From NCBI GenBank assembly GCA_903856085.1, contig CAIOAT010000016.1, forward strand, positions 8,581-72,580: 64,000 nt of DNA, in the 5' to 3' direction. Position numbers and translations under genes: made by a program. The notes below the pieces were generated by a model. It saw only the letters and a list, made by a program, of their open reading frames with translations. It ran no database searches and was not told where the DNA came from. Below, in pieces: positions 1,925 to 28,903 of the stretch (position 1 is its first letter; each line of letters opens with the position of its first letter). This DNA is from Candidatus Omnitrophota bacterium. Lineage in GTDB: Bacteria > Omnitrophota > Omnitrophia > Omnitrophales > Aquincolibacteriaceae.

Positions 1925-1996
1925 TTTAGCTTCTCCTTTTGACGCCTTCAGTTTAAATGAAAGCATCCTGGTTAGATGTAAAATTCCTGTAAACTC

Positions 1997-3583: not shown

Positions 3584-3699
3584 AAGATTGGATCTCCTCC
3601 GGTTGAATGGGAATGGGGCAGAATTCTTTTCTGTCCGTTTGATTTTCATGCCGGAAGTATAGAAAACCCGTGTCAGGTCTCCATGATGGAAATGTAAAG

Positions 3700-3732
3700 A
3701 AATTGTAAGGAAAAAAGTGACGGCTTTCGGAT
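3700..3732 (-). promoter_or_regulatory. Candidate Pho-box-like direct repeats upstream of porin-pstSC operon
   Basis: TGTAAAG / TGTAAGG direct repeats with 11-bp periodicity (TTACA-type half-sites on the coding strand) ~120 bp upstream of porin start; pattern resembles PhoB/PhoP boxes; unverified. Confidence 0.2.
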
Positions 3733-3918
3733 GGAGCAAGGAACAACTTGCTAACAACCTGCTAGGAGCTAACATTGTGGACAAGATTCAGAAAAGCTCC
3801 CCCTCCCTGCAGGAAGAGGACTGGAATGGAGGCGTGGGATCACCTGAAGACTTCCCATTGGTAGCGCAGTTTCACCTCGACGCAATTACTTAGAGGGGAC
3901 CCCGTTTTTCAGGGCTTC

Positions 3919-11455: not shown

Positions 11456-11467
11456 AGTTTTGAAACT

Positions 11468-13030
11468 CTAAAGCGACGGGCCCGCGCCTTGCTTCAGATC
11501 GAGGGGTGCTCCAAAAACATCGGCGAACATGTCCCCTTTCCGTCGCAGGCTTTCCCGTTCAAGCGAAATATCCCCGATCTCTTTCGGCACCCAGATCGCA
11601 TAAGTGTCTTCCGAACGTTCCAGAGTAAACGACCGGATCTTCTGCTGGTGGCCGGTGTCCAAAGCGTCTGCAATGCGCAGGATGGAAGCAAGTTTTGAGA
11701 CGATTGCCCGGTCCGATTTCGCAAGAGACATGTAAGGTACGTGCGTTTCGCGCGGCGGCACACGGCGATGATACCGGACAACATTAGCGACAATATTCTT
11801 GTCGGTCCTCCTCAGCCCGAAGATCTCGGCGGCATCCACTAAATAATACGAATGCTTGTGGTGTCCCGAAGGAGAAACGTAGGTTCCAATATCATGTAAG
11901 ATACCGGAAACCTCGAGCAAAAGACGCTCGCGGGACCCCATGCCATGATCTCCCGCAAGCAGGTCATAAAGTTTCAATGAGAGTGAGGCCACGCAAACCG
12001 CATGCCCCTTGTCGTACATATATTTTGCCCCAAGGTGGTGGGCGGAATTAAGGACCTGCTTCGAGACGTCCGTTCTTCGGTAACCCGAAAAAAGCTGGGC
12101 CATTTCGAGCAAAAGACCGTCCCGAATACTTAATTTTGGGATAATGACCTCCTCCGCCTTGGTTTCATTTAAAAAATTCAAATAAAAAAGAAGCGCGGGG
12201 TAAAGGGACTCCGCATGCCCATAATCGAGAGAGTATTGCGCGGCAATCTCTTCGGGCGTCATTTTCCCCACCCGCCCCATAAAACTCACAAATTCTTTCT
12301 TTTCAAGAATGGTGAAACGGTCGAGAGTCTCCGGAAGAAGCTGCTGCGATACGAATCGCATATCTCCACCCAGAGCAACGAACGTATCGATCTGCTCCAT
12401 ACGAACTTCACGCGCCACGTTCTGTGCGATATCCCGGATACTCTTCTTCAGAACACGCTGTATGAGTCCCGCATCTTCTTTCCCGGCTACGGCCTGCTCG
12501 GGAAGCCTTACTGATCCTATCGGCAGGGTCCGCGTAACGCTCACCCGACCTTGATCCATGATGATCATTTCCGTACTGCCAGAGCCTACTTCGACGATCA
12601 GGCAATTCTTTTTTTCGAGATCGATCCTCCCCTCCAGCGCATGCTCGACCGCGATCAATTCGAGACGGTTTTCTTCCGGGCCCTCCAAGATCTCCACTTC
12701 GATGCCAGCGCGCACATAGATTTGATCGATGAAATTATCCCGATTCTGGGCCTCCCGGACAGCGCTCGTGGCGATCGCTTGGACTTTTTTGATTCCATAC
12801 GTATCGATCACAGACTTGAAGTCTCGGAGAATGTTCACACCCTGGCGCATGGAAGCACTGCTCAACCTGCCCGTTTTAAAAACATCTTTGCCGAAACGAA
12901 CCGGCTTTTGAAGCTGCTCCAAATAACGAATCTCGTTTTTGGCTCCAACCTCCGCAATCACCATGCGGATTGCAATGGTTCCGATGTCAATAACGGCGGC
13001 GATATGTTTTTGAATTTCTTGTTCAGGCAT
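11468..13030 (-). CDS. ppx: Exopolyphosphatase/guanosine pentaphosphate phosphohydrolase (Ppx/GppA) with C-terminal HD domain
   Basis: ASKHA-fold N-terminus 'AAVIDIGTIAIRMVIAEV', C-terminal HD motif 'ILHDIG'; immediately downstream of ppk1 as in canonical ppk-ppx operons. Confidence 0.85.
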   Translation of the reverse strand: MPEQEIQKHIAAVIDIGTIAIRMVIAEVGAKNEIRYLEQLQKPVRFGKDVFKTGRLSSASMRQGVNILRDFKSVIDTYGIKKVQAIATSAVREAQNRDNFIDQIYVRAGIEVEILEGPEENRLELIAVEHALEGRIDLEKKNCLIVEVGSGSTEMIIMDQGRVSVTRTLPIGSVRLPEQAVAGKEDAGLIQRVLKKSIRDIAQNVAREVRMEQIDTFVALGGDMRFVSQQLLPETLDRFTILEKKEFVSFMGRVGKMTPEEIAAQYSLDYGHAESLYPALLFYLNFLNETKAEEVIIPKLSIRDGLLLEMAQLFSGYRRTDVSKQVLNSAHHLGAKYMYDKGHAVCVASLSLKLYDLLAGDHGMGSRERLLLEVSGILHDIGTYVSPSGHHKHSYYLVDAAEIFGLRRTDKNIVANVVRYHRRVPPRETHVPYMSLAKSDRAIVSKLASILRIADALDTGHQQKIRSFTLERSEDTYAIWVPKEIGDISLERESLRRKGDMFADVFGAPLDLKQGAGPSL

Positions 13031-13038
13031 GCTGTTCC

Positions 13039-14031
13039 CTACTTTTTGGCCGCTTTAAAAACTTCATGGGCCATTTTGGCGGCTCCTAAAATAACCGCAT
13101 TATCCTTCAGTTTGGACGGGACGATTTTCACCACTTTGGCGAGGGGCTTAAGCGCGTAAGCTTCCATCTCACGTCTGACCTCAGGAAGAATGATCTTTCC
13201 CATCGCCTCCATCATTCCTCCTCCCAAGAGGATCAATTCCGGATTCAAAATGTTCACCACATTCGCTAGCGCAACCCCGAGCCACCGGGAACGGCTCCGG
13301 ATCAGCTCCTCTAACGCGATATCCCCCGCTTTGATAGCGCGGGACAAAGCACCGCTGCGGATTTTTTTTACGTTATAACCGATCTCTTCGAGAAGATGCG
13401 GGCACTTCTGCCGCAGCAAGAGGAACCCCGCCTCCGATGCAATAGCATTCCTGCCGACCAAAGCTCCGACTTTTTGGCGCGACGTTTCAAAATCAGAAAA
13501 AGAAGGAAGTGACAGAAATGTCTGGCCGATCTCACCAGCTCCTCCAGAAGCGCCACGGTAAAGATGTCCGTTGATGATGAGCGCCCCGCCGATACCCGTT
13601 CCTAGGAAAACCCCCACGACTTCCCGATAACCCCGCGCTGCGCCGAATTGCTGTTCTCCGAAAAGCCCCGCATTGGCATCGTTTTCAATAAAGACCGGTG
13701 TTTTCAGCTTCGCTTTCAGTTTTTCAGCAAGTGAATAATTCTTAAAAAAAGATACGTTGGAGGAGACTTTGACGATCCCTTTATAGATATCAATGATTCC
13801 AGGACAACCCACACCGATGGTTACAAGATCACTCAGGTCCGACCCGGTTTCTTCCAGAACTTCCTCGATCCCGTCAATGAGCTTGTTGAAAAAGAACCTC
13901 TCGCCGCGATTACCGTCCATCTCAAGTTTGACGGTCTTTTTTAAACTAAATTTCCTGTCAAAAAGACCTATCAGAATCTTGGTCCCGCCCAGATCGATGC
14001 CAAGGATGAACTTCTTTTTCTTGCCCGCCAT
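13039..14031 (-). CDS. ROK-family sugar kinase (glucokinase; possible polyphosphate-glucokinase)
   Basis: 'ILGIDLGGTKI' ASKHA phosphate-1 motif, ROK family Cys/His-containing middle region; start re-set to MAGKKKK (ATG ~14031, GGAGAG SD). PolyP specificity only inferred from ppk/ppx neighbourhood. Confidence 0.7.
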   Translation of the reverse strand: MAGKKKKFILGIDLGGTKILIGLFDRKFSLKKTVKLEMDGNRGERFFFNKLIDGIEEVLEETGSDLSDLVTIGVGCPGIIDIYKGIVKVSSNVSFFKNYSLAEKLKAKLKTPVFIENDANAGLFGEQQFGAARGYREVVGVFLGTGIGGALIINGHLYRGASGGAGEIGQTFLSLPSFSDFETSRQKVGALVGRNAIASEAGFLLLRQKCPHLLEEIGYNVKKIRSGALSRAIKAGDIALEELIRSRSRWLGVALANVVNILNPELILLGGGMMEAMGKIILPEVRREMEAYALKPLAKVVKIVPSKLKDNAVILGAAKMAHEVFKAAKK

Positions 14032-14279
14032 AGACTCTCCCCTTTCAAAATTGATTTCCATTATAATGGCTCAGGGAAGTTTTTATGTAAAGCATTTGTA
14101 AAGTCTTGGTGGCTCTATCCATTCAGACCACCTAAAAAGCCCTTCCAGAAATTCCGTAGAGAAATCCACAGGCCCCTATCTTCACACAAAACACAGGGTA
14201 TTCCTCGCGATCTTTTAACGCAAACAAGCCATCACATAAACCTCTGTGCGAATGAACACGTTTTTCACAGGAACTGTTT

Positions 14280-17200
14280 TTATGCCGCTACTTTAACAGC
14301 CTTTGCATTTCTCCAGGAAGCAGCAAGGAACTCTGTGACAAGCATCAAGGCATCTTTCATGCCCCAAAGATCCCGTTTTCTTCCTAGCTCAAAAAGTTGC
14401 CGACTTGTGACAAGATACCAGAGAAGAGAAAAAAGAACCTCCGGGTCAGAGCTCTTCAACTCCTTATCGTAATAAACAAGATTCCCAACGCAACTCTTCA
14501 CCTTTTGGACTTCGCGGCGATCGATTCCGACATAAGCATAATCCAAGCGTTGATATTGAGGTCCGGTGACTAAGGGACGCAGGAATTTCAAAATGGAAGC
14601 ACTAATGCTATCAGATATCTCTACTAGCTGAAAATGTCCGGTAGGAAGCTCCATTTTCTTTATCTTTTGTTCGATTGCCTCTTTCCCGGGAAATCGACTC
14701 CTCTCGAACAGGATAATGACACGGAACGGCAGCCGCGAAAGCAGCAAAAGATGCTCATCGCGAATTCCGATCCTCGCGTCCAGGAAAAGGGTGTTCAAGG
14801 CATTGGCCCGCTGCGGAAGAGCGCGGAACATTCCCATTCCTTTTTGGAAGGCTAAAAAATCGTCCCCTGATAGCGCTAAAAGCTCCTTCAGATCCGGTCC
14901 TGTGCTTTCTGAAAGAAAACTCGCGTCACCCAAAAGAGATTTTAAGCGCGGTAAAAGTTTTACATCCTCCGGTCCTAGGATCCATTCCGTGATCTTGATG
15001 GCAACCAGAAGACGGACTTTCTCCGAAACAACCGGCGTCACGTCTTCTTGCAAGGAAATCTCACGCGTAACCTCTTTGGGATTGAGTTCTAACGCTGGGG
15101 GTTTTTCGGAAGTTCTGTCTTCTCTCAATTCGGAACGCAGCACCCCACCAGGGCCCACAGCAGCCAACGCGGTTGCAATCGCCGAAAAGTGCGTCGTTAG
15201 AATCTTGTAAGTACGCGGCGTAAAGACACCTCGTTTTTCACGCAACATCGTAGAAACATCCTCGGGGGAGAGGGCCACGATCTCAACGGCATCATCTCCC
15301 GGTCTAAATTCTTTCCAATTGAACTCTCCATTGAGCGAAAAATGAAACAACTTTACATCCTCTTTTCTTGTGGTGGGAACTTGCCTTCGCCCCTCATGAT
15401 GAACTTCATAGGAAAGAGGAGGGAGCTCCCGAACTGGTAATGAGGTTAAGGCCGCGGGAAGAGGGCGGCCATCACGGAGTTCTTCAAGGAACCCCCTCTG
15501 GATTGCGGCTTCCGGACTTTCTCCGGGCTCCAGATGCTCAAAAACGGGAAGATCCAATAGACCCGGATTACTGGAAGTTAAATTACTGCGCCGCTGAAAA
15601 ACAACTTTTCCATCCTTGGTCACAAATGCGGCAACCTTTAAGGCCGCCAGACCTCTTGCATGCCCCTGTTTTCTTGGCAAGTGTACGATTTGATCGCCTC
15701 GCGTATCACGAAACATAAAAATCTGCCGATCCGCGAGCAATGAACCTTCCCCCTCCAATCGCTCGACGGCTGTACGGTTCGCCAGCTCCGGAAAAGATAC
15801 CTCGAGGCGCTTCATCCGCTCCAAAATCCCAGCCCGATTGCTCCCAGATATAAAAAAATGATCGGAAGGCGCCGGAACAAAAGCCTCCACTTCAGGAGGC
15901 TTCTGCGCAGTCGCACGAAAGGTCTCCCACAGTTTTTTCCCCATCGTGCTATAAATCTTCGCATATGGATTGGCGGCATCTTGTCCATCCGAAAACGTTT
16001 TTTGATTATGAGCGAGCCTCTGAAGATTAGGCGACACCGAAGTATTCCCTCGAAGCTGAAGATCGAACTCAGCAACCACTCTCGCAAAATCCTCTACGAG
16101 ATCCACCACAAAAGCTCCATATTTTGAGATCAAGCTTTCTGTTTTTTTACGAAATACGTCTATCAATCCTTCCATCTGTTGACGTTCCTCCTCCGTCCTT
16201 GAAACAAGAGCCATGGGCCCTTTGGGAACTGCAAATTGAGGCGTGATCGCATTATCCAATGTCAGACCGGTCCCGAACAAATGCCCATACTGACCTAAGG
16301 CACCTTTCAATTCTTCTGGGCGACGAACCACATGCTCCACATCATGCCTCGGAGAACCGTTACGCCCCAACAACACGGGATGCCGATCTGTTTCAACTTC
16401 TTCCAGAGAAGCAAGCCGTGCGTCAATAACGATCTGACTTCCCTGGTTGTTATAGCTGATCACATTCGAGCTCAGGTCGCCTCCAGGGAAAATGATCTCT
16501 CCATGCTTCACGCCTTGCTCCCTGAAGTCGCCTGCCATCCGCAAAGCTTCGGCAAGATTCATCTTAAAGACCGCCATAGCAACCGCCAAAGGAATACCTG
16601 GCTGCGGGAACCAATAGATCTGTAATTTTTTACCCAACGACTCCGCCAGATCGCGAGCGGCAAAAAATTGTCCGGCATTCCCCGGGAAAAGGCCGTCGGA
16701 TTCCGCTACTTTGAAACGGAAATGTTTCAGAACATGATCCTGCGCTACCATTGTTTCAAAAAAATTCCGATTCTCTCCGTTTTTAGGCGGGAGCAAAATG
16801 ATCACCTCGACGTCCTCCCTCAAATTTTCATCCAAAAGCGCCCGGCTCATCTTTGCCATCATAAGATTTTCTCCGGCGACATCGTCCATCTGGGAAAGGG
16901 CAACTTCCCTCCTGGGTTCTGAGGCCGGTCGTGACATTTCATATTGTTTGTTTCTCATACGTTTCGCGGACGCCCGTAAGGATTGGATCTCACGTTTGAA
17001 AGTCCCGTAACCATTTCCACTAAGATTCCTCAACATCGGCCCCACATGCCTCCAAACTGAGAAAAGGGTCCACAAAACACCAAAGATTGTCGGAACTGTA
17101 ATCAACAACTGGTGCAAACCAAATATAAGGTTCAGGATGGGTACAATAAAAAGAATCGCCACTCCGGCCACCGCCAATGCCCGGCCAAGCCATCGTCCAT

Positions 17201-20200
17201 AAAAATGGTCTAGCTTGTTTCCTTCCAGCTCATCAAGTTCGGCTGTGGGATGGAACGCTTTATGGAGTCCTGCTTTTGCCACGCGCATGGCCTCACGTTC
17301 ATTTTCAAATCCGGATATTCCCAGTTTTTGCATATTGGCCGTCACGCGTCTAAAGCTGTTCAGCGTCACCCACCGATTGATCGCCACCATCAGCGTCACC
17401 CCGAGGCAAAGACGCCATATGGAAAAGGTCCAGAGAACCTTCCGATTGTGCAGGATCTTCTGCCAATCCGAGAACTTCATTCCGTCTTGAAGCAATAACT
17501 TGGGAGGATAAAGATCGATTACCTGGGAAAGGGCAATGAGCCGATTCGACAGATTGAATCCTTCATTAAAATTCTCTGCAAAATCGGCTGATTTTTCAAG
17601 AAACCTCAAAACCTCCTGCTCTTCGATATCATTCCCAGTCCCCCGAGTCGCCTGAAATTGACGGGAAGCCGTCTGAGCGGTCAGGATCGATAAGCGGGCC
17701 AAAATCCCACGGATCTTGACCAGAGAATGCGTGTCGGGTTTCCACATTTCAGAAAGGTCCTCAAAATGTTCCCGGGAAAATCTAAGCAGCGGATGCTGCG
17801 CCAACTCGCTGGCCTTTGTGGTGATCATATCCCTTTCGCCCGAACCCAAGTGCTCATTTTCTAAAAGAAGTCGAGTCCAAGCCTGAAGCGGCTCAACGAT
17901 TTCCTGGAACACCCGCATATCCACGTCATCACCGCGGACCGCTCTTTGTTTATTAGCGTTTCTTTTTAAACGCATCCCGATTTTTCCCGCCTCGTCAAAG
18001 AGAATCTCTAGAGATTCCACGGAATCTCTCCGGAAAAACTTCTCATGCCCTCTTTTTTTCATCAATGCGAAAAAAAGTTTTGGAAGATTCCAGACAAGTA
18101 GAACCAAAGCAAGAACCGGGAAAAAACGCCAACTGATGTAACGAGCCCCAAAAGGGTTCATGAAATACCTCAAGAGAGCCGCTCGCTGCGTGGGATTTTG
18201 TTCTTCCCTTACTAGCTCCAAAAGTCCCAGAACCCCGATCTTTTGTCCGGGATGCATTTGAAATTGTTCCTGAACGGATGCGGGAATCGAATCTATTAAG
18301 CGAAGAGGTGGCGACTTTCTTTCGACAAGATCGCCTTTCTTCTTCGCCCAGGCTGAGGCTTTGGCGGACCCATCGAAAGCAATATCCGCAACACTACCCT
18401 CGCCAAGAATTCCCTCCGTATCGTCGCTGCGGATCACAACTCCCTCCCGTTCACCCAAAAGCCATTGGCTGCTGTTCGCGAGAGGGATCACTGCATACAC
18501 TGTCCCCATCAAAACGCCGCGGGATGTCACGACAGAGACTTTATCTCCTGTTTTAACGCTTCCCGTTTCGACAGGGAGCAGAAAAGGATCCTCATTGGAA
18601 AGACGGCCTGTCCATTCTGCAGAACGGGGGTCAACGCTCGTTCCCAAAAAAACCTCTTTGTTTACAATGCCGGCTTTCGTCACCTGCCCCGCCGCCAACG
18701 TTTGTCCATCTAAAGCAGTAACGCCCAGAACACGACCCCCCACGGGAGCTTTGAGCAGGATGGGCAATCCGCTCCGCTGGATCCCTGCAACGGCCCGCTG
18801 AGCTCTTTTTTCATAGTCCTGGAGAGAGCTTTCGGGAAGAGTCCTAAAGTCCTGGTTCGCCTTACGCATTGTCCGTGCAAGAGTCTCAAGCTGTCTGGCA
18901 ATCTTGAGCTGCCCACCTTGCCCCACAGGGATCCATTCCCCCAAGGAGTCCCCGGCCTTAACCGTTTGTCCATCCCGAACTGTAGCTCGAAAAATTCCGG
19001 CGTCGATCCCGGGAACGGGAGGAACACCGACCGGGATGAACTGTGAAGATGGAATAGTGGTGTGAAATCCGGCATTGTGATGCAATCCTAACGATTCGAC
19101 GCTCGGAGTATTATCTTTTATCAGCTTAATATCATATGCACAACTCGCCCCATGGGCCGGAAGAGATGTGGAAGATGGGAAGCTGAAATGAACTGTTAAA
19201 ATAAATTCGCCGTCCACTCCTTTCGCAAGGTCAAAATGACTTGCTTCCCAATCCAACACATTCACGGAATGCCCATTGACGGAAAGTTCGATATCATCGG
19301 CTCCGGAATATCCCGGAGGAAGAGCAATCTTTATGACCCCCTCATCCAGAGGAACGATCCCCACGGCATAACTACCAGCCGTTGCCGGCCCCTGATCCAG
19401 TGTTTGAACGATTGCCGGGCGGGGCGAAACCAGGATGTCGGCTTCTGCTTCCGCCTTCAGTTGAGCGAGCTCCAGTTGATGTTCGATCCTCTCAAATTGA
19501 TATTGAAATATTGTGTCCCGGTCGAGAGTCCCCGCATCTTTTTCTCCTCTGGCCACCAACCCGCCAAGTTCTCGGATCCTATCTTCCAGAAATTGAGTCC
19601 TGTTATCGCGTTCTGTATCCTCTCCTCTCGCAAGCAGGTCGCCTTTTTTGACAACATCTCCAGGTTTAACGGCATAAGTCATCTTATCTGCCGTCAATGG
19701 GGCTTTGAGCATGACCGCACCGGGAGGATTCACGATTGCTTGTCCTTTGCCTGTATACAAGACAGTTGCTGTGTTTGCGACAGAGTGTTGCTCTTCAAAC
19801 ACTGGTTTGACCTCTGTCCTATCAGAAACAAGGGAGGCTGATGCGACGGAAGACGGCTCTTTCACGGAAGCCTCCTCGTTCGTGACATTCAAAGCATTGG
19901 CAGTCCCGGCTGGGCTTTGAAATGGTATCCCGGAAAAATCTTTCTTCGTGAGTTTCTCCTTTGCGCCTGACGAAGTCATTACCTGTTCTCCTTGAGAAAC
20001 CGCATCGGCCAAGGTTTCGCGCCCATCCACGTTGCCTACACCAAGAATTTCGATGACGGAACTATCCGGAGAGACCGATTGGGGGTTGGATGTCGCATGA
20101 TCGGCTTCAGAAATTTTTGGGCTCTCCGCGGTGGTTGGAAGTGCGGAAGATGGCCCATCCGCAGAAACCCTGTCGGAGAGGACCGATGATGCCGCTGCAA

Positions 20201-23200
20201 CCGGAGAAATATACGCTCTCGATACTTTTGAAGAATGCCCGTTCTCTGGAACGGAAGACGCTCCCTCCAAAGAAACAATTCGGAAATAGCCTTGGTGTTG
20301 GGGCACCACCACGAATGTTGCTTCATAAGGATTCTTGGTTTCCTTGCGTAATGTCCAGATCCCCTTTCTTTCCGTTTTAAGAAATTTCGCACCCTGCAGG
20401 TCTTTTCCTAAAAAAGTCACTGTAGAGGAGGGAACGCCCCGCTGCATTAAAAGCTGCGCTCCTTTCATGTTTTCGGTGATCATTTGTTTGCCCACCAATT
20501 TCTGAATCGCCAATTCATTGGTTTGAGCCAAGGCTGACGAAGCCATGAGAAAAGCCCCCAGCAAAAATCCTCCCATTATTTTTAACAAGAAATGGATTCC
20601 CAGCTTTCGGCGAACTTCTGAACGCTGTGGTGCAATTCCTAGCCCGAAGAAATTTGCCCCGGTGATAACATTCAAAGGTTCTACCCACGTTTCGGATGCG
20701 CGCAGATCTGTAAAACCCTTCGTAGTCCATACTTTTTCGGATACAACTTGAGCATTCAACCAATCTCTTAGTTCGTCCGGGATAGTTTTTGATCCCACCA
20801 GTCTCCACGAGAAAACCTTCCGGGAAAAACCTAAGACGATTTGGATATCAGCAATGGGTGGGGCGTTTTGATTCGTCTTCACGTGAAATAGGGTGCCATT
20901 TATGCCAAGCTTGTGCCCTCGTCTTAAAAATCCCTGCAATTCTGGAGACATCTCCAAAACAATTTTGCCAAGATCAACCCTGTAAACCAACCCCGCAACC
21001 TTTGTCTCTGGCCCAAAAGCTTCAATGTGCTTCGCCGAAAGAGAGGCTGCGCTCCGCATTTCGAATCTTGTCACACCCTTCTTGAAAGACCGATAAGCCT
21101 GCATCAAAAGGCCTGCGGCGATTGCTGACGCTTCCTCTTTTTCTTCAGCCCTTAGCTTTGATTCCCGCGTGTTCAATTCGATATATTCACGAATTCGAAC
21201 GTTAAGTCCAGATAGCGCAGAGGAGGTAAAATTCATCTCGAAAGATTCGATCGCTTTAGCGGCTAGCGCGTAAGGAACCAAGGTATCCGGCAGATCCTTG
21301 GCCTGTCCAAGATCGTTTCTAACCGATTCCAAATCGGCAAAAGTAACCCCGCCATTCCGTTCTTTTCCATAAATGAGTCCCCACGCAAGCGCCCAAGCCG
21401 CCATCGCCTGCTCAGCAGGGATTCGAATGGCCCCCTTAGCCGACGTCATAAGCTCGAGTGACACGGCGAGCATAGACGTCGGGATCATTGCATCCGCATC
21501 ATCCAACAACCCGCCATCGATCAAGCTCACGATCGCATGATGGGCAAGAGCACGCACGGTTCCGCAATCACTGAGATTAAGTTGCAAAAGCACTTCTGCA
21601 CGCTTCAAAGCTTCCCCAAGGATTTCCTTATTCATAACGGGATCAAGATAATTTGAACGCGCCTCCGAACGAACGACGATTTGCGCTTTCACCGATCCCG
21701 GTTCAGAACGGCCAGACGCTGCCTTTTCGCGAGAAAACCGATGGCGAGAGAGTTTCGAATCAACATTGGAACGCCGAAAGGCCTCTGAAATCAAAACACC
21801 CAGATGAATTTTTTTAATCATTTTCAAAGCCACCCAGGAAAAGGCAATATCCCCCGTAAGGATGACGAGCTCTGAAAGGTAGGGGCTTACAAGCTTGTTG
21901 ATAATCATCGCCATCCCCTCAACAGGAAGGAACCATAACAACAATTGACGGCGACTCTCCTTAAAAGATCCGTGGCTTTTGAAGAGTCGTAGAGATTCGA
22001 AGTTATTTTCAGGATAGATGTTTGTATAATATTTCCAGAGCATAAGTGGATAAAAAATATAAAAATTGATCAAAGCATCCCCCATGGTTTTAAGGACGAT
22101 CTCAGACCACACATCAAGCCATGGGGAAAGATTTAATTTCCCGATTAAGGCATAATAAACGGTAAAAAATAAAGCGAACAAGCTAGCTGGAGCTGCGGCT
22201 TTCCTGGAGTCTTTCCAGAATGTTTTCATGAACACTCCTCGAAAGCCATGGCGAAGATAATCCTGCATCCAGACACAATATGCCGCAATCATGCCAGCCC
22301 AGGCGATACTCACGCCAAGTGAAAGAACTAAAGAATGCCATGACGCGTTCTGAAGATGCGGTTTAAGGATAAACGCCAGCCCCAGAGTGGCGGCTGAAAA
22401 TCCAGCTGTCCCCATCGCGGCAGGTGTGATTTGTTTGAGATGAGCGAGTTTGGATCTCTGGTTCCTTATTTCGGACCGGCCGAGCAAGACTTGGGGCAAT
22501 CCCTTTACGTCCCGAGTAAGCACTTGCAGCTCTTTGGCTGCCAATGTGGCCGCCTTGCGAGAGAATAGGATTTGGATCTGATTACTGGGGATCTTTAAAG
22601 CGTCCACAATAAGCCGGTCCTCGGTAACGCCAGCCCCACGAGCCTTTTTCAGATAGCCATCAATCCTTGCATTCTCGGCCTCCGCAATCCGTATCGTCTC
22701 ATTTTCAGCCACAATCGTTTGAAGAAGACCTGCAATCTTCTCTTCGATTTTGTCATGAACTGTCAAGAGCTCGGCTTCCGCTACACGAGTCTCCAGAAGA
22801 GCTATTTCCCGATTGGCTCGCTCAGCGCCCCCGAAAGTCACCTTCCCGCCGAGACCTACGGCCTGCTGATCCTCCGTGCGTTGTTTTGCCTCCGGAACAA
22901 CTCTTGTATTGAACACATCCGGAACTTTTGTCCCATAGGAATCGAAATAGTTGAATCCCTTAAGACCGATCGAGTAACCGTTCTCTCTTGCAGCCAATCT
23001 CGCGGCCGTTGCGGCAGTCAAACGGGCCTCATAAGCCAACGCAAGTTCACGGTTTGCCGGAAGTTTGACGCCTTCTTTGGAGGTTGCTTTAAGACCAAGC
23101 GCTATTCGTTGATCGGTTGTGATCGTCCACCCTTCCGGAAATCGCACATAATTCAAGGCATTGGAAAAAGTCGCACATCCTAAGATGTTTTGGCCATAGA

Positions 23201-25985
23201 GTGTCCTCAAAGGCAATGCCGCCTTCTCCAACTTGGAACGATGCTCATTAAGACGTAAAAGCCACTCCGCCTTAAGATCTCCGATCGCCTGGCGTTTTGC
23301 GGCTGTTGACTGCGAGTTCTTGCCGGCGACTTCGCTAGCATGATCGATCGCCTCAAGGGCTGCTTCAATAATTGGGCCTTGTGATTCAAGCGTTTTCATT
23401 TCGTAGGCGGCCCCCAAGAAATCGAGGTATCGTTCACCCGCCACCTGCTGAAGTTCCAGTCCGGCTGTTTCAACCATCTGCTGCGCCAGTTCTCGCGCCA
23501 GGATATCCTGACCTTTCCAGTATTTGCTAATCTCCGCTGCAAGGGATAACACCGCACTGGCCGCCGAATCCAAACCGATCCCCGTTAATTGTATCTGCCC
23601 AAGATTCGGCAAAGTTCCTTCGACGCCAAGCCCAAGCACCGGTTTCCCATCTGCGAGACCTAGGGTAGGCATGAGAGAAATGCTCCCGGACAAACTTCTT
23701 TTTTTGGATTCCCGGATACTCACCTCAAAACGGTGTCTCAGAATGACCGGATCGCGAGTAACCAATGCTTCAGCCAGGGAGCTTTCATTCACCAGAATCG
23801 GACCGGACAGAGAAATTTCTTTTTGCGGCAAAATGTACTGACGATCCGATTCGATCTGTTGTCTCGCATGGTCACGGCCCAAATTCGCACAACCGCTGAG
23901 AATGCCTGCCATTACAACCCAAAGAACCGCCTTCATGAACGAGGAGGGCTTCCATCGGATCTCGGCGCGCGAGAACAAATTGTTTTTTCCCTGGATCGCG
24001 TCGGGGAGCAATGCCAAAAGTCCCTTCTCCGCCCCGGGAGATAGCAAGGGAGTCGGATCTAAAATGAATCCGACATGGGTATTCATTCTCTGAAATAAGA
24101 AGCTCAAAACGTGTTGCTCTAATGCTTGACGAACTTCATGCATCCCTTTGTAAAATTTCTCCGGAATGGCTGCGAATATCCGTTGTCCCTCCCCATCCAT
24201 GAATGCCGACTTTCCCGTCTGGGATCTTTGGGCCAACACGCTGTGTTCTCCCTCGGAAACATCGACCACCGCCACTTGATGTTTTTTAAGTGATCTTTCG
24301 ATCTGTCCCATAGCCGCTTCAAAATGGTCAAATGCTGGCTCTCCGACCATCTGCCTCGCCTCGGAGTGTTCCATCACGGGGAGCTGCGCGGGAGCGATCG
24401 TAGACGTCCCGGGATACCGCCCCATCAAGAGATCACTATAGGGAAGCATCTTTTCTTCCGGGTTGAAATACGGCGTCACAAGATTGAACGGTATCCCAAG
24501 CGCTTCTGTTCGCCTGAGTAGTCCTTCCTTATGGTAGCCTCCGGCAACAATCACAATGTTTCTGGTTTTATTCCCCTGTCCATTCAAAAAAAGAGGATCT
24601 TGAATCCTTTTTTTGATGATATCAAAAAAAACATCTTCGCGAGCTTCTGCCTGAGCATAAAAATCCAAAACAAGGTCGACAAGGGGCGCTATCGTCTCTT
24701 CGTGAGGGAGTGATGGCTCCCGGAGAAAGCGCTTGTAAGCCTGCACCCAGTTCTTGCGAAAATGGTCGCGAAACCGGGCCACGCACTCCCTTTTAAGTTC
24801 AAGGGAAAGCGCCTGTTTCAGGAGGAAAAAATCCTGGTAAAAGGCAAGCCATCGTCCAGCTACCGGATCACTGCGACGGAGGGTCTCATACAACCTGTTC
24901 TCGAGCGTCTGGATTTCGTCAAAAAGTCTTTCGGCTATAAGTTCGCTTTCAAATACCTGCAAAGCAAGAAACTTCCGAATCATCGGATAACGTCCCCAAG
25001 AAAGCTCCCGTGCCAAAAATTTCTCCATGATGCGTTCCGCCATAACGCGAGAAGTCACGCTTCCAGTCTGAAGTGCGCGTGACCGGAAAGTTGCATTCGA
25101 AGCGGCGCTCTCGAGCCATTCGATTTCCGATCGAGAATCCGGACCAAGCACCCGTTTAAGCTGTCCGATTTCTTTCGTGACTGCGCTACAATCCGGTGCT
25201 GTTTCCGTATTCAAAACACGGAAAAACCGAACTAGCTGAGGCCAATCTTTTTGCGTCGAAAGATCCCGCCAATCGATTCCCAAATGCTTCGAAGAGCAAT
25301 CAAAAAGAAACTTCATGTACTCGCTTAAATCATTTTGGCTTTCCTGATGAGATCTCCACATTTTCAAGAAATGGAATACCTGCGGATCAATAACTTTTTT
25401 GATATCTTGAATTAATGATGCCTCCACCTGATCAAGAAACTCTCGAATCTCACCATGGTTGCGCATAACGGCCCGGTAAGTTTCGAGGTTCTTTCGGTAA
25501 AGCCCTGCCTCCTCAATCCCGTACACGCGTATGCCGGAGTGATTTGCAAAGAATTGAGTGGCGCCATTAACGAATCCCGCTTGGAAAAGGCTTCCCAAAA
25601 AGATCCTGTTCTTTTCATCATCCTGGAAAGGCTTCAGAGCCTCGGGAGACAGAGGGCCTGATGCACCTTCAATAAAAAGCATATCGAGTTTCTTTTGCTC
25701 TAGAAGGGACTCTAGTATCTTCGTAATATTCTTTTGAGCCTCTTCCGAAGCATGCGCATCTTGGATATGGTAGAAACTGAAAGGCACGGACCTTTCCGGG
25801 GGCGGGGACTTTTCAAGGCTTCCTACTTTGGGGGATAAAAAAACGGGGGCTTCGGCAACAGCGCCGGTATAAAAATATGCCGTCACAGCACGCACTTCTT
25901 GGGAAGGAAAAATGGTTTCAAAAACAAAAATGGCCACAACAGCAAATGCTACGATCCGGATCAATTTGCTTTTCTTGGCTTTCAT
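14280..25985 (-). CDS. Giant (~3,900 aa) multidomain envelope protein: N-terminal module of unknown function, lipobox + TolC-like OMF repeats, polytopic TM block, internal signal-peptide-like segment, S/P/A-rich linker, two HlyD-like membrane-fusion modules, further TM blocks, C-terminal cytoplasmic region with Nudix-like domain
   Basis: Single ORF with no in-frame stop over 11.7 kb (impossible by chance at ~50% GC). TolC-like coiled-coil/beta repeats (aa ~720-1230), MFP lipoyl/beta-barrel motifs ('AVKPGDVVKKGDLL…', '…TVKAGDSLGEW…LKAPVGGRVLGV'), hydrophobic helix clusters, Nudix-box-like 'GESPEAAIQRGFLEELRDG'. ATG at 25985 (GGAAAAGGG SD) or TTG at 26015. Confidence 0.8.
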   Translation of the reverse strand: MKAKKSKLIRIVAFAVVAIFVFETIFPSQEVRAVTAYFYTGAVAEAPVFLSPKVGSLEKSPPPERSVPFSFYHIQDAHASEEAQKNITKILESLLEQKKLDMLFIEGASGPLSPEALKPFQDDEKNRIFLGSLFQAGFVNGATQFFANHSGIRVYGIEEAGLYRKNLETYRAVMRNHGEIREFLDQVEASLIQDIKKVIDPQVFHFLKMWRSHQESQNDLSEYMKFLFDCSSKHLGIDWRDLSTQKDWPQLVRFFRVLNTETAPDCSAVTKEIGQLKRVLGPDSRSEIEWLESAASNATFRSRALQTGSVTSRVMAERIMEKFLARELSWGRYPMIRKFLALQVFESELIAERLFDEIQTLENRLYETLRRSDPVAGRWLAFYQDFFLLKQALSLELKRECVARFRDHFRKNWVQAYKRFLREPSLPHEETIAPLVDLVLDFYAQAEAREDVFFDIIKKRIQDPLFLNGQGNKTRNIVIVAGGYHKEGLLRRTEALGIPFNLVTPYFNPEEKMLPYSDLLMGRYPGTSTIAPAQLPVMEHSEARQMVGEPAFDHFEAAMGQIERSLKKHQVAVVDVSEGEHSVLAQRSQTGKSAFMDGEGQRIFAAIPEKFYKGMHEVRQALEQHVLSFLFQRMNTHVGFILDPTPLLSPGAEKGLLALLPDAIQGKNNLFSRAEIRWKPSSFMKAVLWVVMAGILSGCANLGRDHARQQIESDRQYILPQKEISLSGPILVNESSLAEALVTRDPVILRHRFEVSIRESKKRSLSGSISLMPTLGLADGKPVLGLGVEGTLPNLGQIQLTGIGLDSAASAVLSLAAEISKYWKGQDILARELAQQMVETAGLELQQVAGERYLDFLGAAYEMKTLESQGPIIEAALEAIDHASEVAGKNSQSTAAKRQAIGDLKAEWLLRLNEHRSKLEKAALPLRTLYGQNILGCATFSNALNYVRFPEGWTITTDQRIALGLKATSKEGVKLPANRELALAYEARLTAATAARLAARENGYSIGLKGFNYFDSYGTKVPDVFNTRVVPEAKQRTEDQQAVGLGGKVTFGGAERANREIALLETRVAEAELLTVHDKIEEKIAGLLQTIVAENETIRIAEAENARIDGYLKKARGAGVTEDRLIVDALKIPSNQIQILFSRKAATLAAKELQVLTRDVKGLPQVLLGRSEIRNQRSKLAHLKQITPAAMGTAGFSAATLGLAFILKPHLQNASWHSLVLSLGVSIAWAGMIAAYCVWMQDYLRHGFRGVFMKTFWKDSRKAAAPASLFALFFTVYYALIGKLNLSPWLDVWSEIVLKTMGDALINFYIFYPLMLWKYYTNIYPENNFESLRLFKSHGSFKESRRQLLLWFLPVEGMAMIINKLVSPYLSELVILTGDIAFSWVALKMIKKIHLGVLISEAFRRSNVDSKLSRHRFSREKAASGRSEPGSVKAQIVVRSEARSNYLDPVMNKEILGEALKRAEVLLQLNLSDCGTVRALAHHAIVSLIDGGLLDDADAMIPTSMLAVSLELMTSAKGAIRIPAEQAMAAWALAWGLIYGKERNGGVTFADLESVRNDLGQAKDLPDTLVPYALAAKAIESFEMNFTSSALSGLNVRIREYIELNTRESKLRAEEKEEASAIAAGLLMQAYRSFKKGVTRFEMRSAASLSAKHIEAFGPETKVAGLVYRVDLGKIVLEMSPELQGFLRRGHKLGINGTLFHVKTNQNAPPIADIQIVLGFSRKVFSWRLVGSKTIPDELRDWLNAQVVSEKVWTTKGFTDLRASETWVEPLNVITGANFFGLGIAPQRSEVRRKLGIHFLLKIMGGFLLGAFLMASSALAQTNELAIQKLVGKQMITENMKGAQLLMQRGVPSSTVTFLGKDLQGAKFLKTERKGIWTLRKETKNPYEATFVVVPQHQGYFRIVSLEGASSVPENGHSSKVSRAYISPVAAASSVLSDRVSADGPSSALPTTAESPKISEADHATSNPQSVSPDSSVIEILGVGNVDGRETLADAVSQGEQVMTSSGAKEKLTKKDFSGIPFQSPAGTANALNVTNEEASVKEPSSVASASLVSDRTEVKPVFEEQHSVANTATVLYTGKGQAIVNPPGAVMLKAPLTADKMTYAVKPGDVVKKGDLLARGEDTERDNRTQFLEDRIRELGGLVARGEKDAGTLDRDTIFQYQFERIEHQLELAQLKAEAEADILVSPRPAIVQTLDQGPATAGSYAVGIVPLDEGVIKIALPPGYSGADDIELSVNGHSVNVLDWEASHFDLAKGVDGEFILTVHFSFPSSTSLPAHGASCAYDIKLIKDNTPSVESLGLHHNAGFHTTIPSSQFIPVGVPPVPGIDAGIFRATVRDGQTVKAGDSLGEWIPVGQGGQLKIARQLETLARTMRKANQDFRTLPESSLQDYEKRAQRAVAGIQRSGLPILLKAPVGGRVLGVTALDGQTLAAGQVTKAGIVNKEVFLGTSVDPRSAEWTGRLSNEDPFLLPVETGSVKTGDKVSVVTSRGVLMGTVYAVIPLANSSQWLLGEREGVVIRSDDTEGILGEGSVADIAFDGSAKASAWAKKKGDLVERKSPPLRLIDSIPASVQEQFQMHPGQKIGVLGLLELVREEQNPTQRAALLRYFMNPFGARYISWRFFPVLALVLLVWNLPKLFFALMKKRGHEKFFRRDSVESLEILFDEAGKIGMRLKRNANKQRAVRGDDVDMRVFQEIVEPLQAWTRLLLENEHLGSGERDMITTKASELAQHPLLRFSREHFEDLSEMWKPDTHSLVKIRGILARLSILTAQTASRQFQATRGTGNDIEEQEVLRFLEKSADFAENFNEGFNLSNRLIALSQVIDLYPPKLLLQDGMKFSDWQKILHNRKVLWTFSIWRLCLGVTLMVAINRWVTLNSFRRVTANMQKLGISGFENEREAMRVAKAGLHKAFHPTAELDELEGNKLDHFYGRWLGRALAVAGVAILFIVPILNLIFGLHQLLITVPTIFGVLWTLFSVWRHVGPMLRNLSGNGYGTFKREIQSLRASAKRMRNKQYEMSRPASEPRREVALSQMDDVAGENLMMAKMSRALLDENLREDVEVIILLPPKNGENRNFFETMVAQDHVLKHFRFKVAESDGLFPGNAGQFFAARDLAESLGKKLQIYWFPQPGIPLAVAMAVFKMNLAEALRMAGDFREQGVKHGEIIFPGGDLSSNVISYNNQGSQIVIDARLASLEEVETDRHPVLLGRNGSPRHDVEHVVRRPEELKGALGQYGHLFGTGLTLDNAITPQFAVPKGPMALVSRTEEERQQMEGLIDVFRKKTESLISKYGAFVVDLVEDFARVVAEFDLQLRGNTSVSPNLQRLAHNQKTFSDGQDAANPYAKIYSTMGKKLWETFRATAQKPPEVEAFVPAPSDHFFISGSNRAGILERMKRLEVSFPELANRTAVERLEGEGSLLADRQIFMFRDTRGDQIVHLPRKQGHARGLAALKVAAFVTKDGKVVFQRRSNLTSSNPGLLDLPVFEHLEPGESPEAAIQRGFLEELRDGRPLPAALTSLPVRELPPLSYEVHHEGRRQVPTTRKEDVKLFHFSLNGEFNWKEFRPGDDAVEIVALSPEDVSTMLREKRGVFTPRTYKILTTHFSAIATALAAVGPGGVLRSELREDRTSEKPPALELNPKEVTREISLQEDVTPVVSEKVRLLVAIKITEWILGPEDVKLLPRLKSLLGDASFLSESTGPDLKELLALSGDDFLAFQKGMGMFRALPQRANALNTLFLDARIGIRDEHLLLLSRLPFRVIILFERSRFPGKEAIEQKIKKMELPTGHFQLVEISDSISASILKFLRPLVTGPQYQRLDYAYVGIDRREVQKVKSCVGNLVYYDKELKSSDPEVLFSLLWYLVTSRQLFELGRKRDLWGMKDALMLVTEFLAASWRNAKAVKVAA

Positions 25986-26119
25986 TTTTTGCCCTTTTCC
26001 AATGGTGGAAGACAACTCTTTAAGGTTTTATAAAAGTTTTTCCTTCTGATCTCACGGAAAGCTTAACTTCGTTGTGAAAACTCTGCATCACATCCCGGTA
26101 AAGATAATGTAAAAACAAT

Positions 26120-26439: not shown

Positions 26440-27129
26440 ATGGCAAGCGAAACGATTCTCCTCATTGAAGACGAAAAGAACATCCTTGAGCTTGTGAAAT
26501 ACAACCTCGAGCAGGAGGGTTTTCGCGTCCTCACCGCGACCAAAGGCAACGCAGGTCTTGAGACAGCGCTTAAAGAAAAACCAGCCCTTGTGCTCCTCGA
26601 CCTCATGCTCCCGGAAATCAATGGCCTCGAGATTTGCAAAACCCTAAAACAGACCGAAAAAACACGCAGGATCCCTATCATCATGCTTACGGCCAAAGGC
26701 ACCGAGTCCGATAAAGTCGTCGGCCTCGAACTCGGCGCCGATGATTACATCACCAAACCTTTCAGCCCCCGGGAACTCGTAGCTCGCATCAAAGCCGTCC
26801 TTAGACGCTCTCAGGAAAAAGCCCCGGAAGAGATCTTGAGATCCGGAACGATCGAGCTTGACGTGACAAAGCATGAGCTGCGATTAAAAGGAAAGCCCGC
26901 CGAAATTACCGCCAAAGAATTCGAACTCTTGCGCGTACTCATGAGTTCCAAGGAACGGGTCCTGACGCGCGAGGTTCTCTTATCAAAAGTTTGGGGTTAT
27001 GAGAATTCTGTGAATATCGAAACGCGGACTGTCGACATGCACGTCGGACAGCTACGAAAAAAACTTGGCAAAGAAGCGGATCGGATCGTCACGGTTAAAA
27101 GCGTCGGCTACCGTTTCGACGGAGAATAA
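26440..27129 (+). CDS. phoB: OmpR/PhoB-family response regulator
   Basis: REC domain with D at 'LLDLMLP', winged-helix output '…VWGYENSVNIETRTVDMHVGQLRKKL…TVKSVGYRF'; adjacent to PhoR-like kinase and in a Pho-gene neighbourhood (symbol is inferred). Confidence 0.85.
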   Translation: MASETILLIEDEKNILELVKYNLEQEGFRVLTATKGNAGLETALKEKPALVLLDLMLPEINGLEICKTLKQTEKTRRIPIIMLTAKGTESDKVVGLELGADDYITKPFSPRELVARIKAVLRRSQEKAPEEILRSGTIELDVTKHELRLKGKPAEITAKEFELLRVLMSSKERVLTREVLLSKVWGYENSVNIETRTVDMHVGQLRKKLGKEADRIVTVKSVGYRFDGE

Positions 27130-27130
27130 G

Positions 27131-28903
27131 ATGGGCTTTCCAAAGATCGGTTTCGCCAAACGTCTCCTCGTGCTGTATGGCATTATTTTCATCCTCGTCC
27201 TGCTCGTAACCGATTGGACGCTTTCTCATTTCCTCCAAAAGCGTGACCTCCAACAGCTTCAGAGCTCTCTTTCGCGTCAGTCGACCCTGATCCGCGAGAT
27301 TGCGACTCCTCTATTAAAGGAGGCTCCCAAGCTCCAATCCAAAGTCAAAAAGCTAGCCGAGGGGACCGATCTTCGCATCACGATCATCGATCCCGAAGGC
27401 GCGATCCTTGCCGATTCCAGTGAAACCAGCGAGGCTCTCGCGAAAATGGACAATCACGCGACCCGGCCCGAGGTTGCGTCCGCACTGAGAAAAGAAACGG
27501 GCATGAGCATCCGTTACAGCATGACTGTTCAGACCAAAATGCTTTATATCGCTATCCCCATCCTGGAACACTCCCAGATCCTAGGGGTCGTTCGCACCGC
27601 GATGCCGATCACACGCGTCGATGAGATCCTGGCCTCGGTCCGCCGACCCGTGATGCTCGCAGCGGTCCTCGGCATTTTGATCGTCCTCGTTGCCGGCATT
27701 CTCTTCGGCGGTCGCCTCACCCAACGCATAGGACGCATCACCTCCGTAGCCGAACGTTATGCCCGCGAGGACTGGTCTGAAAAAATCCTGATGGACGGCC
27801 GCGACGAGCTCAAAATGCTCGCAGATACCATGAATCAAATGGCCACATCCCTGCGCTCAAGGATCGAAGACCTGGAAAGTGAGAAAGGTAAGATTTCCGT
27901 CATTTTGAGCAATATGAACGAAGGGGTGATCGCGATTAGCCGGCGCAAACAGTTTGTTATGGCAAATCCCGCAGCGGAAAAAATCTTTGGATTCACTGCC
28001 GCCCATACGCAGGAGAAAAGTCTGATCGAAATCACACGCCACCCTCAACTCGAAAGGATCGTGGACCACGCCTTCCAGGAGCAAAAAAACGCCTCCTCCG
28101 AAATCCAGATCTCCGGCAAGATAAAAAAGACACTTCTTGCAAATGTGATCGTTCTCGATGCCCACGCCCGCGATATCGGCGGCATCCTTGTTTTTCATGA
28201 CATGACGGAGCTCCGTCGACTCGAGAATATCCGGAAGGAATTCGTAGCCAATGTTTCCCACGAACTCCGCACGCCCCTCACCTCGATTAAGGGATTCATT
28301 GAAACGTTGCTGGGCGGCGCCTTAAAAGATCCCCCGACCAGCGAACGGTTCCTGAAAATTGTTTCGGAGGAGACGGATCGACTCGGAAGGCTGGTGGAAG
28401 ATATTCTGACGCTTGGCGAGATCGAACAGGGCGCGGCTCTGGTCAGGAAAGAAAAGATCGATCTTGCCTCTGAACTCCCGGCCATCCTGGAACGATTTAA
28501 GACCCAGCTCCAAGAAAAAAAGATCGCGGTCGAAAACCGCATCTCCGGGAAACCTCTCCCGCTATCTGGAGACAGGGACAAAGTCCATCAGGTCTTCGTC
28601 AATCTCATCGACAATGCGATCAAATTCAATAAGCCTGAAGGGATGATCGTCCTGTCTGCCGATCAAAGTCCGAAAGGCGTGGTGATTACCATCGAGGATA
28701 CGGGGATCGGTATTCCTGAAGAGTCCCTAGGACGGATTTTTGAGCGGTTCTTTCGTGTGGATAAAGCACGTTCAAAGGAGCTTGGAGGAACCGGATTGGG
28801 CCTAGCCATCGTTAAACACATCATGGAAGCGCATGGCGGCCACGCCACATGCCAAAGCACCCCCGGCCAGGGTTCCCGCTTTTCGGTTTTTTTTCCCGCC
28901 TGA
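27131..28903 (+). CDS. phoR: Sensor histidine kinase (PhoR-like; two TM helices flanking ~150-aa periplasmic domain, HAMP, PAS, HisKA, HATPase_c)
   Basis: H-box 'VSHELRTPLTSIKGF', N/G1/G2 boxes 'LIDNAIKFN…DTGIGIP…GGTGLGLAIVK'; start set to ATG 27131 (GGAGAA SD, 1 nt after RR stop). Confidence 0.85.
   Translation: MGFPKIGFAKRLLVLYGIIFILVLLVTDWTLSHFLQKRDLQQLQSSLSRQSTLIREIATPLLKEAPKLQSKVKKLAEGTDLRITIIDPEGAILADSSETSEALAKMDNHATRPEVASALRKETGMSIRYSMTVQTKMLYIAIPILEHSQILGVVRTAMPITRVDEILASVRRPVMLAAVLGILIVLVAGILFGGRLTQRIGRITSVAERYAREDWSEKILMDGRDELKMLADTMNQMATSLRSRIEDLESEKGKISVILSNMNEGVIAISRRKQFVMANPAAEKIFGFTAAHTQEKSLIEITRHPQLERIVDHAFQEQKNASSEIQISGKIKKTLLANVIVLDAHARDIGGILVFHDMTELRRLENIRKEFVANVSHELRTPLTSIKGFIETLLGGALKDPPTSERFLKIVSEETDRLGRLVEDILTLGEIEQGAALVRKEKIDLASELPAILERFKTQLQEKKIAVENRISGKPLPLSGDRDKVHQVFVNLIDNAIKFNKPEGMIVLSADQSPKGVVITIEDTGIGIPEESLGRIFERFFRVDKARSKELGGTGLGLAIVKHIMEAHGGHATCQSTPGQGSRFSVFFPA

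Follow-up and report, generated by a model that had tools for sequence, protein, structure and literature searches.

Whether a signal peptide is of the Sec, twin-arginine translocation (Tat) or lipoprotein class, it normally operates from the free N-terminus of a protein that is still in the cytoplasm, which raises the question of what a lipoprotein signal is doing almost 700 residues into a giant open reading frame (ORF) of a Candidatus Omnitrophota bacterium (assembly GCA_903856085.1, contig CAIOAT010000016.1). The ORF lies on the minus strand of the 64,000-nucleotide stretch analysed here (the window; contig positions 8,581 to 72,580) and encodes 3,901 residues from its ATG codon or, with 10 residues more, 3,911 from an alternative in-frame TTG codon (14280..26015). 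The initial annotation of this DNA had pointed out an in-frame lipoprotein-like segment at residue 694 of the longer form, at the start of a TolC-like module, and had considered internal translation initiation, a membrane anchor, a relic of gene fusion and the processing of a polyprotein as explanations. As argued below, the segment is probably the working lipoprotein signal peptide of a TolC/OprM-type outer membrane factor (OMF) contained in a polyprotein that is cut at a recurring R-[S/A]-E-x-R motif.

Residue 694 of the TTG-initiated ORF is Met684 of the ATG-initiated protein, the numbering used throughout. The segment from Met684 to the lipobox Cys, residues 684-699, is MKAVLWVVMAGILSGC, that is, MKAVLWVVMAGILSG followed by C in frame, and its surroundings in the giant ORF read ...RAEIRWKPSSFMKAVLWVVMAGILSGCANL...; the Met codon occupies 23936..23934 and the Cys699 codon 23891..23889 on the minus strand, and the position of the segment and its L-S-G-C lipobox (residues 696-699) stand as annotated. 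The hydrophobic core, AVLWVVMAGIL, comprises 11 uncharged residues, with the charges of the n-region at K679 and K685. A pattern modelled on PROSITE PS51257 matches the entire protein a single time, at Cys699. Since at least one match to the lipobox pattern arose in 5.4% of 2,000 shuffles, a lone occurrence is mildly unlikely but not decisive. It is conservation that lifts the signal above chance: all nine members of the orthologue set (this protein and P0002-P0009, which are alike beyond the N-terminal domain and share 21-55% identity) retain, at the corresponding position, the charged n-region, the hydrophobic core and the lipobox Cys. The lipobox varies among LSGC, LTGC, VSGC and LGSC, and the residue at +2 after the Cys is Ala in the giant ORF and never Asp in the orthologues; P0013 and P0055 carry a similar lipoprotein signal. 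Loss of the Cys or the core from orthologues had been proposed as evidence that would speak against a signal, and neither is lost in any of the nine. Judged by sequence comparison, the lipoprotein signal is thus confirmed as real and conserved. The shuffle frequency is the one figure that would favour a chance match, and the probability of such a match, or of an assembly or frameshift artefact joining separate genes, is negligible given the conservation at a homologous site. Misassembly can be dismissed, since gene calling gives exactly this 3,901-residue product on 18 independent contigs of different origin. In addition, a scan of species-representative genome contigs with a four-sequence alignment yielded 71 loci of the N-terminal domain (N-domain) of this ORF, and at 67 of them the frame runs more than 1,000 residues beyond the HIQDAH motif.

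The PROSITE PS51257 rule places the lipoprotein Cys within residues 15-35 of the N-terminus, and the ORF as encoded, with its Cys at position 699, breaks it. The same Cys would stand at position 22 after the predicted cut at the motif RAEIR (residues 673-677), which lies 6 residues before Met684, and at position 16, also legal for a lipoprotein, if the mRNA were also translated from Met684 to give a pre-lipoprotein of its own. That no Shine-Dalgarno sequence precedes this Met, as correctly noted in the initial annotation, is a weak argument against such a start, because many real genes of the window also lack one. Internal initiation is nevertheless very improbable, and the doubt voiced about it earlier is strengthened by the orthologues, in which Met684 is not conserved: the signal of P0009 contains no Met, and in P0002, P0003 and P0004 the sole Met lies inside the core. 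Nor do the other fragments of the ORF have a consistently placed Met, and initiation at this point would neither terminate the N-domain nor free the C-terminus of the OMF.

The module behind the signal has the predicted fold of an OMF, which bears out the suggestion that the segment opens a TolC-like module. An AlphaFold2 model of Cys699-Arg1174 (predicted local distance difference test, pLDDT, 71) was compared with PDB using Foldseek, and the best 44 matches are all OMFs that align over the full length, with 440-495 aligned columns, E-values down to 5.5e-12 and template-modelling (TM) scores of 0.57-0.67; they include TolC (7ng9, E 5.5e-12), OprM, CusC, MtrE, CmeC, VceC, SilC and a NodT-family protein. 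The Pfam OEP family (PF02321) matches one stretch below its gathering score (16.3 vs 22 bits, E 0.0087), and a PDB sequence-profile search with the module found no OMF. The proposed membership in the OMF family rests on the modelled fold, not on sequence. Like the OMF lipoproteins NodT, OprM and CusC, the module shows the full-length fold (Foldseek E 5.5e-12 to 1e-8, TM ~0.6), has a mature size of ~470 residues and starts with a lipobox Cys after a signal of the signal peptidase II type, with a residue other than Asp at +2; the embedded signal sits exactly where stand-alone OprM/NodT-type lipoproteins carry theirs. Unlike them, it lacks a gene of its own: its signal begins 684 residues into the ORF, its C-terminus runs into further modules, its Pfam OEP match is sub-threshold and it is flanked on both sides by R-S/A-E-x-R. 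The next R-x-E-x-R follows the Cys after 470-484 residues in every one of the nine orthologues, and the 17 invariant alignment columns of the module include four that belong to its two ends, namely the Cys and the R, E and R of the terminal motif.

This flanking motif is a recurrent feature of the protein. The pattern R[SA]E[LVIMA]R occurs five times in the giant ORF, starting at residues 673, 1170, 1439, 1788 and 3617, and these account for five of the six copies present in all six frames of the window; besides them, RFEMR at 1640 is the only R-x-E-x-R string in the whole protein. The codons of the five copies differ at every position, and selection has therefore acted on the protein and not on a DNA repeat, so that neither a repeat at the DNA level nor a mobile element can account for the junctions. 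A Sec signal peptide starts immediately behind the motif at 1788, and a membrane fragment with several helices comes after the one at 1170; the orthologues have equivalent Sec signals with AxA sites after their motifs. Where a canonical motif is close to the lipoprotein signal, its end is separated from the Cys by 19-35 residues, the length of a signal peptide.

A boundary motif that recurs above chance is one of the properties expected of a polyprotein. In the 76 relatives retrieved by database search, all 2,170-6,482 residues long, 187 copies were observed against 5.1 expected from shuffles, with up to 23 copies in some relatives; small residues occupy positions -1 and -2, and the context is otherwise unconserved. 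A second property, the presence of several complete proteins within one ORF, is seen in the OMF described here and in the relatives P0011, P0012 and P0063, where whole units between motifs correspond to a DUF218 protein, a TrmB-like methyltransferase, a flavoprotein, a 291-residue PP2C and a 706-residue phosphorylase. In these three proteins no motif falls inside a Pfam domain and the fragments are sized like stand-alone proteins; the Rossmann motif of the flavoprotein unit begins at fragment residue 12, and two fragments have Met as their first residue behind the motif. In other lineages the same N-domain is accompanied by different repeated pentamers, namely RSESR, RPEVR, KSExR, [AG]xSLG (up to 10 copies), AARLS (7) and GARLA (11). 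The motif class tracks the similarity of the N-domains, the nearest neighbour of a class G protein being of class G in 23 of 24 cases and that of a class R protein being of class R in 51 of 65, but never R to G, a pattern that fits co-evolution of motif and N-domain and equally plain shared ancestry. Relatives that carry other pentamers and no R-S-E-x-R include P0022, P0026, P0030, P0036, P0058, P0096 and P0107.

Products that need a free N-terminus would be a third mark of a polyprotein, and export signals are indeed concentrated behind the motifs. Among 209 relatives, 27 lipobox patterns lie beyond residue 300, and 10 of the 27 are found within 40 residues after a motif (at 19-35 residues), compared with 1.5 expected. 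Ten canonical Tat signals (RRxFL) begin no more than 20 residues after a motif, for example RSESR followed directly by FLKRRDFISLTALAGAVAF, and ...SRRDFLKLAGAGS; several Sec signals with AxA sites also come after motifs. The occurrence of signals of all three classes after the motif therefore argues that it marks a cut made before export, which we regard as the strongest argument for the polyprotein. A model in which the whole chain is first exported and then processed in the periplasm is ruled out, because Tat and lipoprotein signals after junctions make sense only if the products are freed in the cytoplasm.

Under the polyprotein reading, cutting of the 3,901-residue precursor at the five R-[S/A]-E-x-R junctions would take place in the cytoplasm, while it is being translated or shortly afterwards. 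Six products would result: the N-domain (residues 1-677), the pre-lipoprotein OMF (678-1174), a membrane protein (1175-1443), a soluble protein (1444-1792), a large envelope protein bearing a signal peptide, a weak HlyD-like match, transmembrane helices and a NUDIX domain (1793-3621), and a C-terminal protein (3622-3901). After the cut at RAEIR the OMF precursor would begin with WKPSSFMKAVLWVVMAGILSG followed by C, its lipobox Cys being residue 22; the pre-lipoprotein would then undergo Sec export, acylation on Cys699 by Lgt and trimming by signal peptidase II, and would be passed to the outer membrane by the Lol route, since Ala, not Asp, stands at +2. Cleavage at RSEIR (1170-1174) would free the C-terminus of the OMF, and that at RSEVR (1788-1792) would expose the Sec signal peptide of the next envelope component. 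Cleavage as such, the exact site within the motif, the compartment, lipidation and the protease are all steps that we infer. Together, the OMF, the weak HlyD-like match and the NUDIX-bearing fragment 5 hint that a single ORF encodes a tripartite system spanning the envelope.

The prime candidate for the protease would be the Tiki/ChaN-like N-domain of the family itself. This domain of about 500 residues (~60-525) is the only module common to all relatives, and Pfam holds no model for it. Its invariant residues are H78, E106, G107, G156, E158, F442, Y443, R449, G482, G483, H485 and Y516, with D76 mostly conserved, and in an AlphaFold2 model (pLDDT 85, predicted TM-score 0.81) an alpha/beta core is split by a helical insertion of ~300 residues. 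Ranks 1-4, 8 and 17 of its Foldseek matches in PDB are taken by Bcr135, EreC and HopBA1, all of the Tiki/erythromycin-esterase/ChaN superfamily. The commonest Pfam match is PF04187 (ChaN, Tiki superfamily), found with 4 of 27 full domains and 7 of 25 cores. The H78-E106 spacing of 28 equals that of H85/E113 in Bcr135 and of H3902/E3930 in RRSP, a Tiki-family sequence-specific endopeptidase with a 2His/2Glu active site (PMC6254334); the invariant H78, E106, E158 and H485 are candidates for an equivalent catalytic set in the N-domain. These are three convergent pointers rather than a demonstration, and they weakly suggest a Tiki-type hydrolase. The N-domain would accordingly resemble the Tiki/TraB/PrgY/ChaN/erythromycin-esterase superfamily in where its best structural and Pfam matches fall and in its H...E(+28)...E...R...GG-x-H invariants, and differ from it in the helical insertion that splits its core. 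To our knowledge, no member of the Tiki superfamily processes a polyprotein. The peptide LFSRAEIRWKPS is a candidate substrate for the N-domain (residues 34-672).

Several observations weigh against this reading. The Foldseek E-values of the N-domain (0.12-1.7) and the best E-value of PF04187 (0.0078) are all sub-threshold, so that every score linking the N-domain to the Tiki superfamily is below significance, and PDB sequence-profile searches with the N-domain and its core gave nothing relevant. An apparent cleavable Sec signal precedes the N-domain, with similar n/h/AxA Sec-like signal peptides in P0002-P0045, and would place the domain in the periplasm, away from cytoplasmic junctions; in many relatives a stop-transfer helix is absent and the cargo consists of cytosolic enzymes only. 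This paradox would be lifted if the N-domain did its cutting ahead of export or if a different protease were responsible; among the upstream neighbours, no conserved gene was found as a candidate for a protease acting in trans. Fragment 5 remains 1,824 residues long without a junction, so some modules would stay unseparated. In P0004, P0005, P0008 and P0009 the motif nearest to the lipoprotein signal is degenerate (RSEKA, RSERV, KRSAG) or the canonical copy lies 51-64 residues upstream. Finally, no upstream cut would be needed if the internal signal inserted as a loop that signal peptidase II could cleave, which is possible in principle. In that case the N-domain would stay cytoplasmic, with which the positive n-region before the core is compatible, signal peptidase II would make the sole cut between N-domain and OMF, and the motifs would be linkers or have another role. 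The four orthologues just named agree with such an arrangement, and the cutting of internal signals in viral polyproteins by the host signal peptidase is well established. The arrangement is unlikely all the same. It would leave the C-terminus of the OMF, which runs into a multi-transmembrane fragment, unfreed although an invariant R-x-E-x-R stands exactly there, it explains neither the motifs between purely cytosolic enzymes nor the Tat signals directly after motifs, and it conflicts with the N-domain having an N-terminal signal peptide of its own.

Quite unlikely, too, is a single uncleaved multi-domain membrane protein whose lipoprotein-like segment serves as a transmembrane helix or signal anchor, or is inert and left over from a gene fusion, although two papers on giant proteins of Omnitrophota treat them as single membrane proteins. 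The hydrophobic core of just 11-13 residues is short for a membrane helix, and the Cys and lipobox, invariant at 21-55% identity, would be needless for either a helix or a relic. Judging from known OMF biogenesis, a TolC-fold protomer must reach the outer membrane and trimerise there, which is hardly possible when it is tethered at both ends to the inner membrane. The enrichment of the motif and its link to Sec, Tat and lipoprotein signals would also be left unexplained. Among the options raised in the initial annotation, processing of a polyprotein is therefore the one that gains support, whereas the membrane anchor fits poorly; the fusion relic is true as history and leaves the strict conservation of the lipobox unaccounted for.

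The polyprotein arrangement, if correct, would extend well beyond this ORF. A profile search with the N-domain retrieved 10,132 cluster representatives at E <= 1e-3, of which 7,102 at E <= 1e-30, and the matched proteins, up to 7,376 residues long, all have the domain within residues ~40-600. The 71 loci derive mostly from Candidatus Omnitrophota, with some from Elusimicrobia/Elusimicrobiota, Endomicrobiaceae and PVC-group genomes. Some genomes have multiple N-domain ORFs, as in Ca. Taenariivivens baikalensis (L031, L059, L065, L068, L069) and AM-lipid-02-D9_bin-1187 (L014, L032, L055), and in such genomes a sizeable share of the proteome may be encoded by ORFs headed by this domain. Short N-domain proteins are mostly truncations at contig ends or at N-masked stretches; P0180 (554 residues), for instance, stops at a contig end. 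One stand-alone N-domain gene was found, in Omnitrophica CG11_big_fil_rev_8_21_14_0_20_45_26 (L021, 160..1752, 530 residues). Its product has a lipobox-like N-terminus, FINLPAC, and the ~1.9 kb downstream of the gene contain no long ORF. More tentatively, and with a likelihood that we place somewhat short of even, Omnitrophota, Elusimicrobiota and their relatives may routinely encode operon-like sets of proteins, both cytosolic enzymes and Sec, Tat and lipoprotein cargo, as single ORFs that are cut at lineage-specific pentamers by a Tiki-like head domain, across more than 7,000 clusters, which would explain their 'giant genes'.

Flaviviruses and pestiviruses make polyproteins with internal signal sequences and a protease of their own. 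The giant ORF resembles viral polyproteins in that one ORF would give several mature proteins, with short lineage-specific junction motifs, internal signals to the membrane and a candidate protease in cis; it differs in being a chromosomal gene of a cellular organism, in a family whose cargo includes housekeeping-type enzymes and Sec, Tat and lipoprotein envelope machinery, and in a candidate protease that is Tiki/ChaN-like and not of a chymotrypsin-like or papain-like fold. A bacterial likeness is found in the MARTX toxins, giant proteins cut between modules into independent proteins, among whose effectors RRSP belongs to the Tiki family (PMC6254334). MARTX toxins, however, are secreted, and a cysteine protease domain processes them once they are in the host cytosol, whereas the modules of the giant ORF bear the export signals of the bacterium itself, so that any processing must benefit the cell that makes them; the junction motif and the N-terminal domain differ as well.

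The giant multi-enzyme proteins of Omnitrophota and the Archaeovorins (bioRxiv 10.1101/2023.11.21.568195; 10.64898/2026.06.07.730766), come from the same phyla, share the mosaic of enzymes, NUDIX domains, kinases and transmembrane segments, and likewise begin with a signal peptide followed by an unannotated region; junction motifs, a Tiki-like N-domain and post-junction signals are absent from those descriptions. Cleavage of such giants was suggested in the 2023 preprint. The 2026 preprint, which deals with 'multi-enzyme metabolic cluster' giants, says nothing of cleavage and removes calls of internal signal peptides as artefacts of chunking. The published surveys propose C39 or S8 peptidases or take internal signal peptides as artefacts; one of the two states that no cleavage points are known, and neither settles whether the proteins stay whole or are cut. 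No description of the junction motif or of such bacterial polyproteins was found in the literature, most subscription journals lying outside our coverage. Polyproteins with junction motifs and internal signals are known from viruses, and their use in chromosomal bacterial genes on such a scale appears to be new. The recurring motif with signals directly after it provides predicted cut sites and testable product lists. If the reading holds, polyprotein expression, a viral hallmark, would be common in a whole bacterial branch, gene counts and metabolic reconstructions of these phyla would need revision, and the pair of junction and protease could serve as a tool for fixed-ratio protein expression. 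For annotation, internal signal peptides in such ORFs should be kept and not filtered.

Table 1. Parts of the giant ORF in the window; residues are those of the ATG-initiated protein.
Feature	Position	Strand	Residues	Remarks
Giant ORF	14280..25985	minus	3,901 in total	ATG start; probable polyprotein precursor
N-terminal Sec-like signal peptide or anchor	25887..25985	minus	1-33	MKAKKSKLIRIVAFAVVAIFVFETIFPSQEVRA, followed by V; read from sequence
Conserved N-terminal domain	24411..25808	minus	~60-525	Family hallmark; Tiki/ChaN/erythromycin-esterase-like
Junction motif 1, RAEIR	23955..23969	minus	673-677	Predicted cleavage site giving the new N-terminus WKPSSFMK...
Lipoprotein signal peptide (signal peptidase II type)	23889..23954	minus	678-698 and lipobox Cys699	WKPSSFMKAVLWVVMAGILSG, followed by C
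Complete outer membrane factor (predicted TolC/OprM/NodT fold)	22479..23891	minus	699-1169	
Junction motif 2, RSEIR	22464..22478	minus	1170-1174	R, E and R invariant in 9/9 orthologues
Fragment 3, membrane protein	21672..22463	minus	1175-1438	Hydrophobic helices from ~1189; no Pfam match
Junction motif 3, RSEAR	21657..21671	minus	1439-1443	
Fragment 4, soluble	20625..21656	minus	1444-1787	No Pfam match
RFEMR inside fragment 4	21054..21068	minus	1640-1644	Possible degenerate site
Junction motif 4, RSEVR	20610..20624	minus	1788-1792	
Second internal signal peptide (Sec/signal peptidase I type)	20526..20609	minus	1793-1820	RKLGIHFLLKIMGGFLLGAFLMASSALA, followed by QT; directly after junction 4
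Fragment 5	15138..20609	minus	1793-3616	Signal peptide, periplasmic part, transmembrane helices, cytoplasmic part
NUDIX domain	15225..15635	minus	3451-3587	Cytoplasmic end of fragment 5
Junction motif 5, RSELR	15123..15137	minus	3617-3621	
Fragment 6, C-terminal module	14283..15122	minus	3622-3901	No Pfam match

The transmembrane helices of fragment 5 lie near residues 2624, 2851, 2937 and 2960, and the weak HlyD/biotin-lipoyl-like match (2106-2120) falls in its periplasmic part; for the orthologue P0007, PF25917 is on record. Fragment 6 is common to the orthologues and shares 46% identity with that of P0005. A motif-like string, SQEVR, occurs in the c-region of the N-terminal signal peptide (residues 28-32; 25890..25904, minus strand). 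No tRNA or Rfam features were found in the window. Downstream of the giant ORF (9386..14061, minus strand) lie genes for a ROK kinase, a Ppx/GppA phosphatase and polyphosphate kinase 1, and upstream, in divergent orientation (26440..28903, plus strand), genes for an OmpR-type response regulator and a HAMP/PAS histidine kinase.

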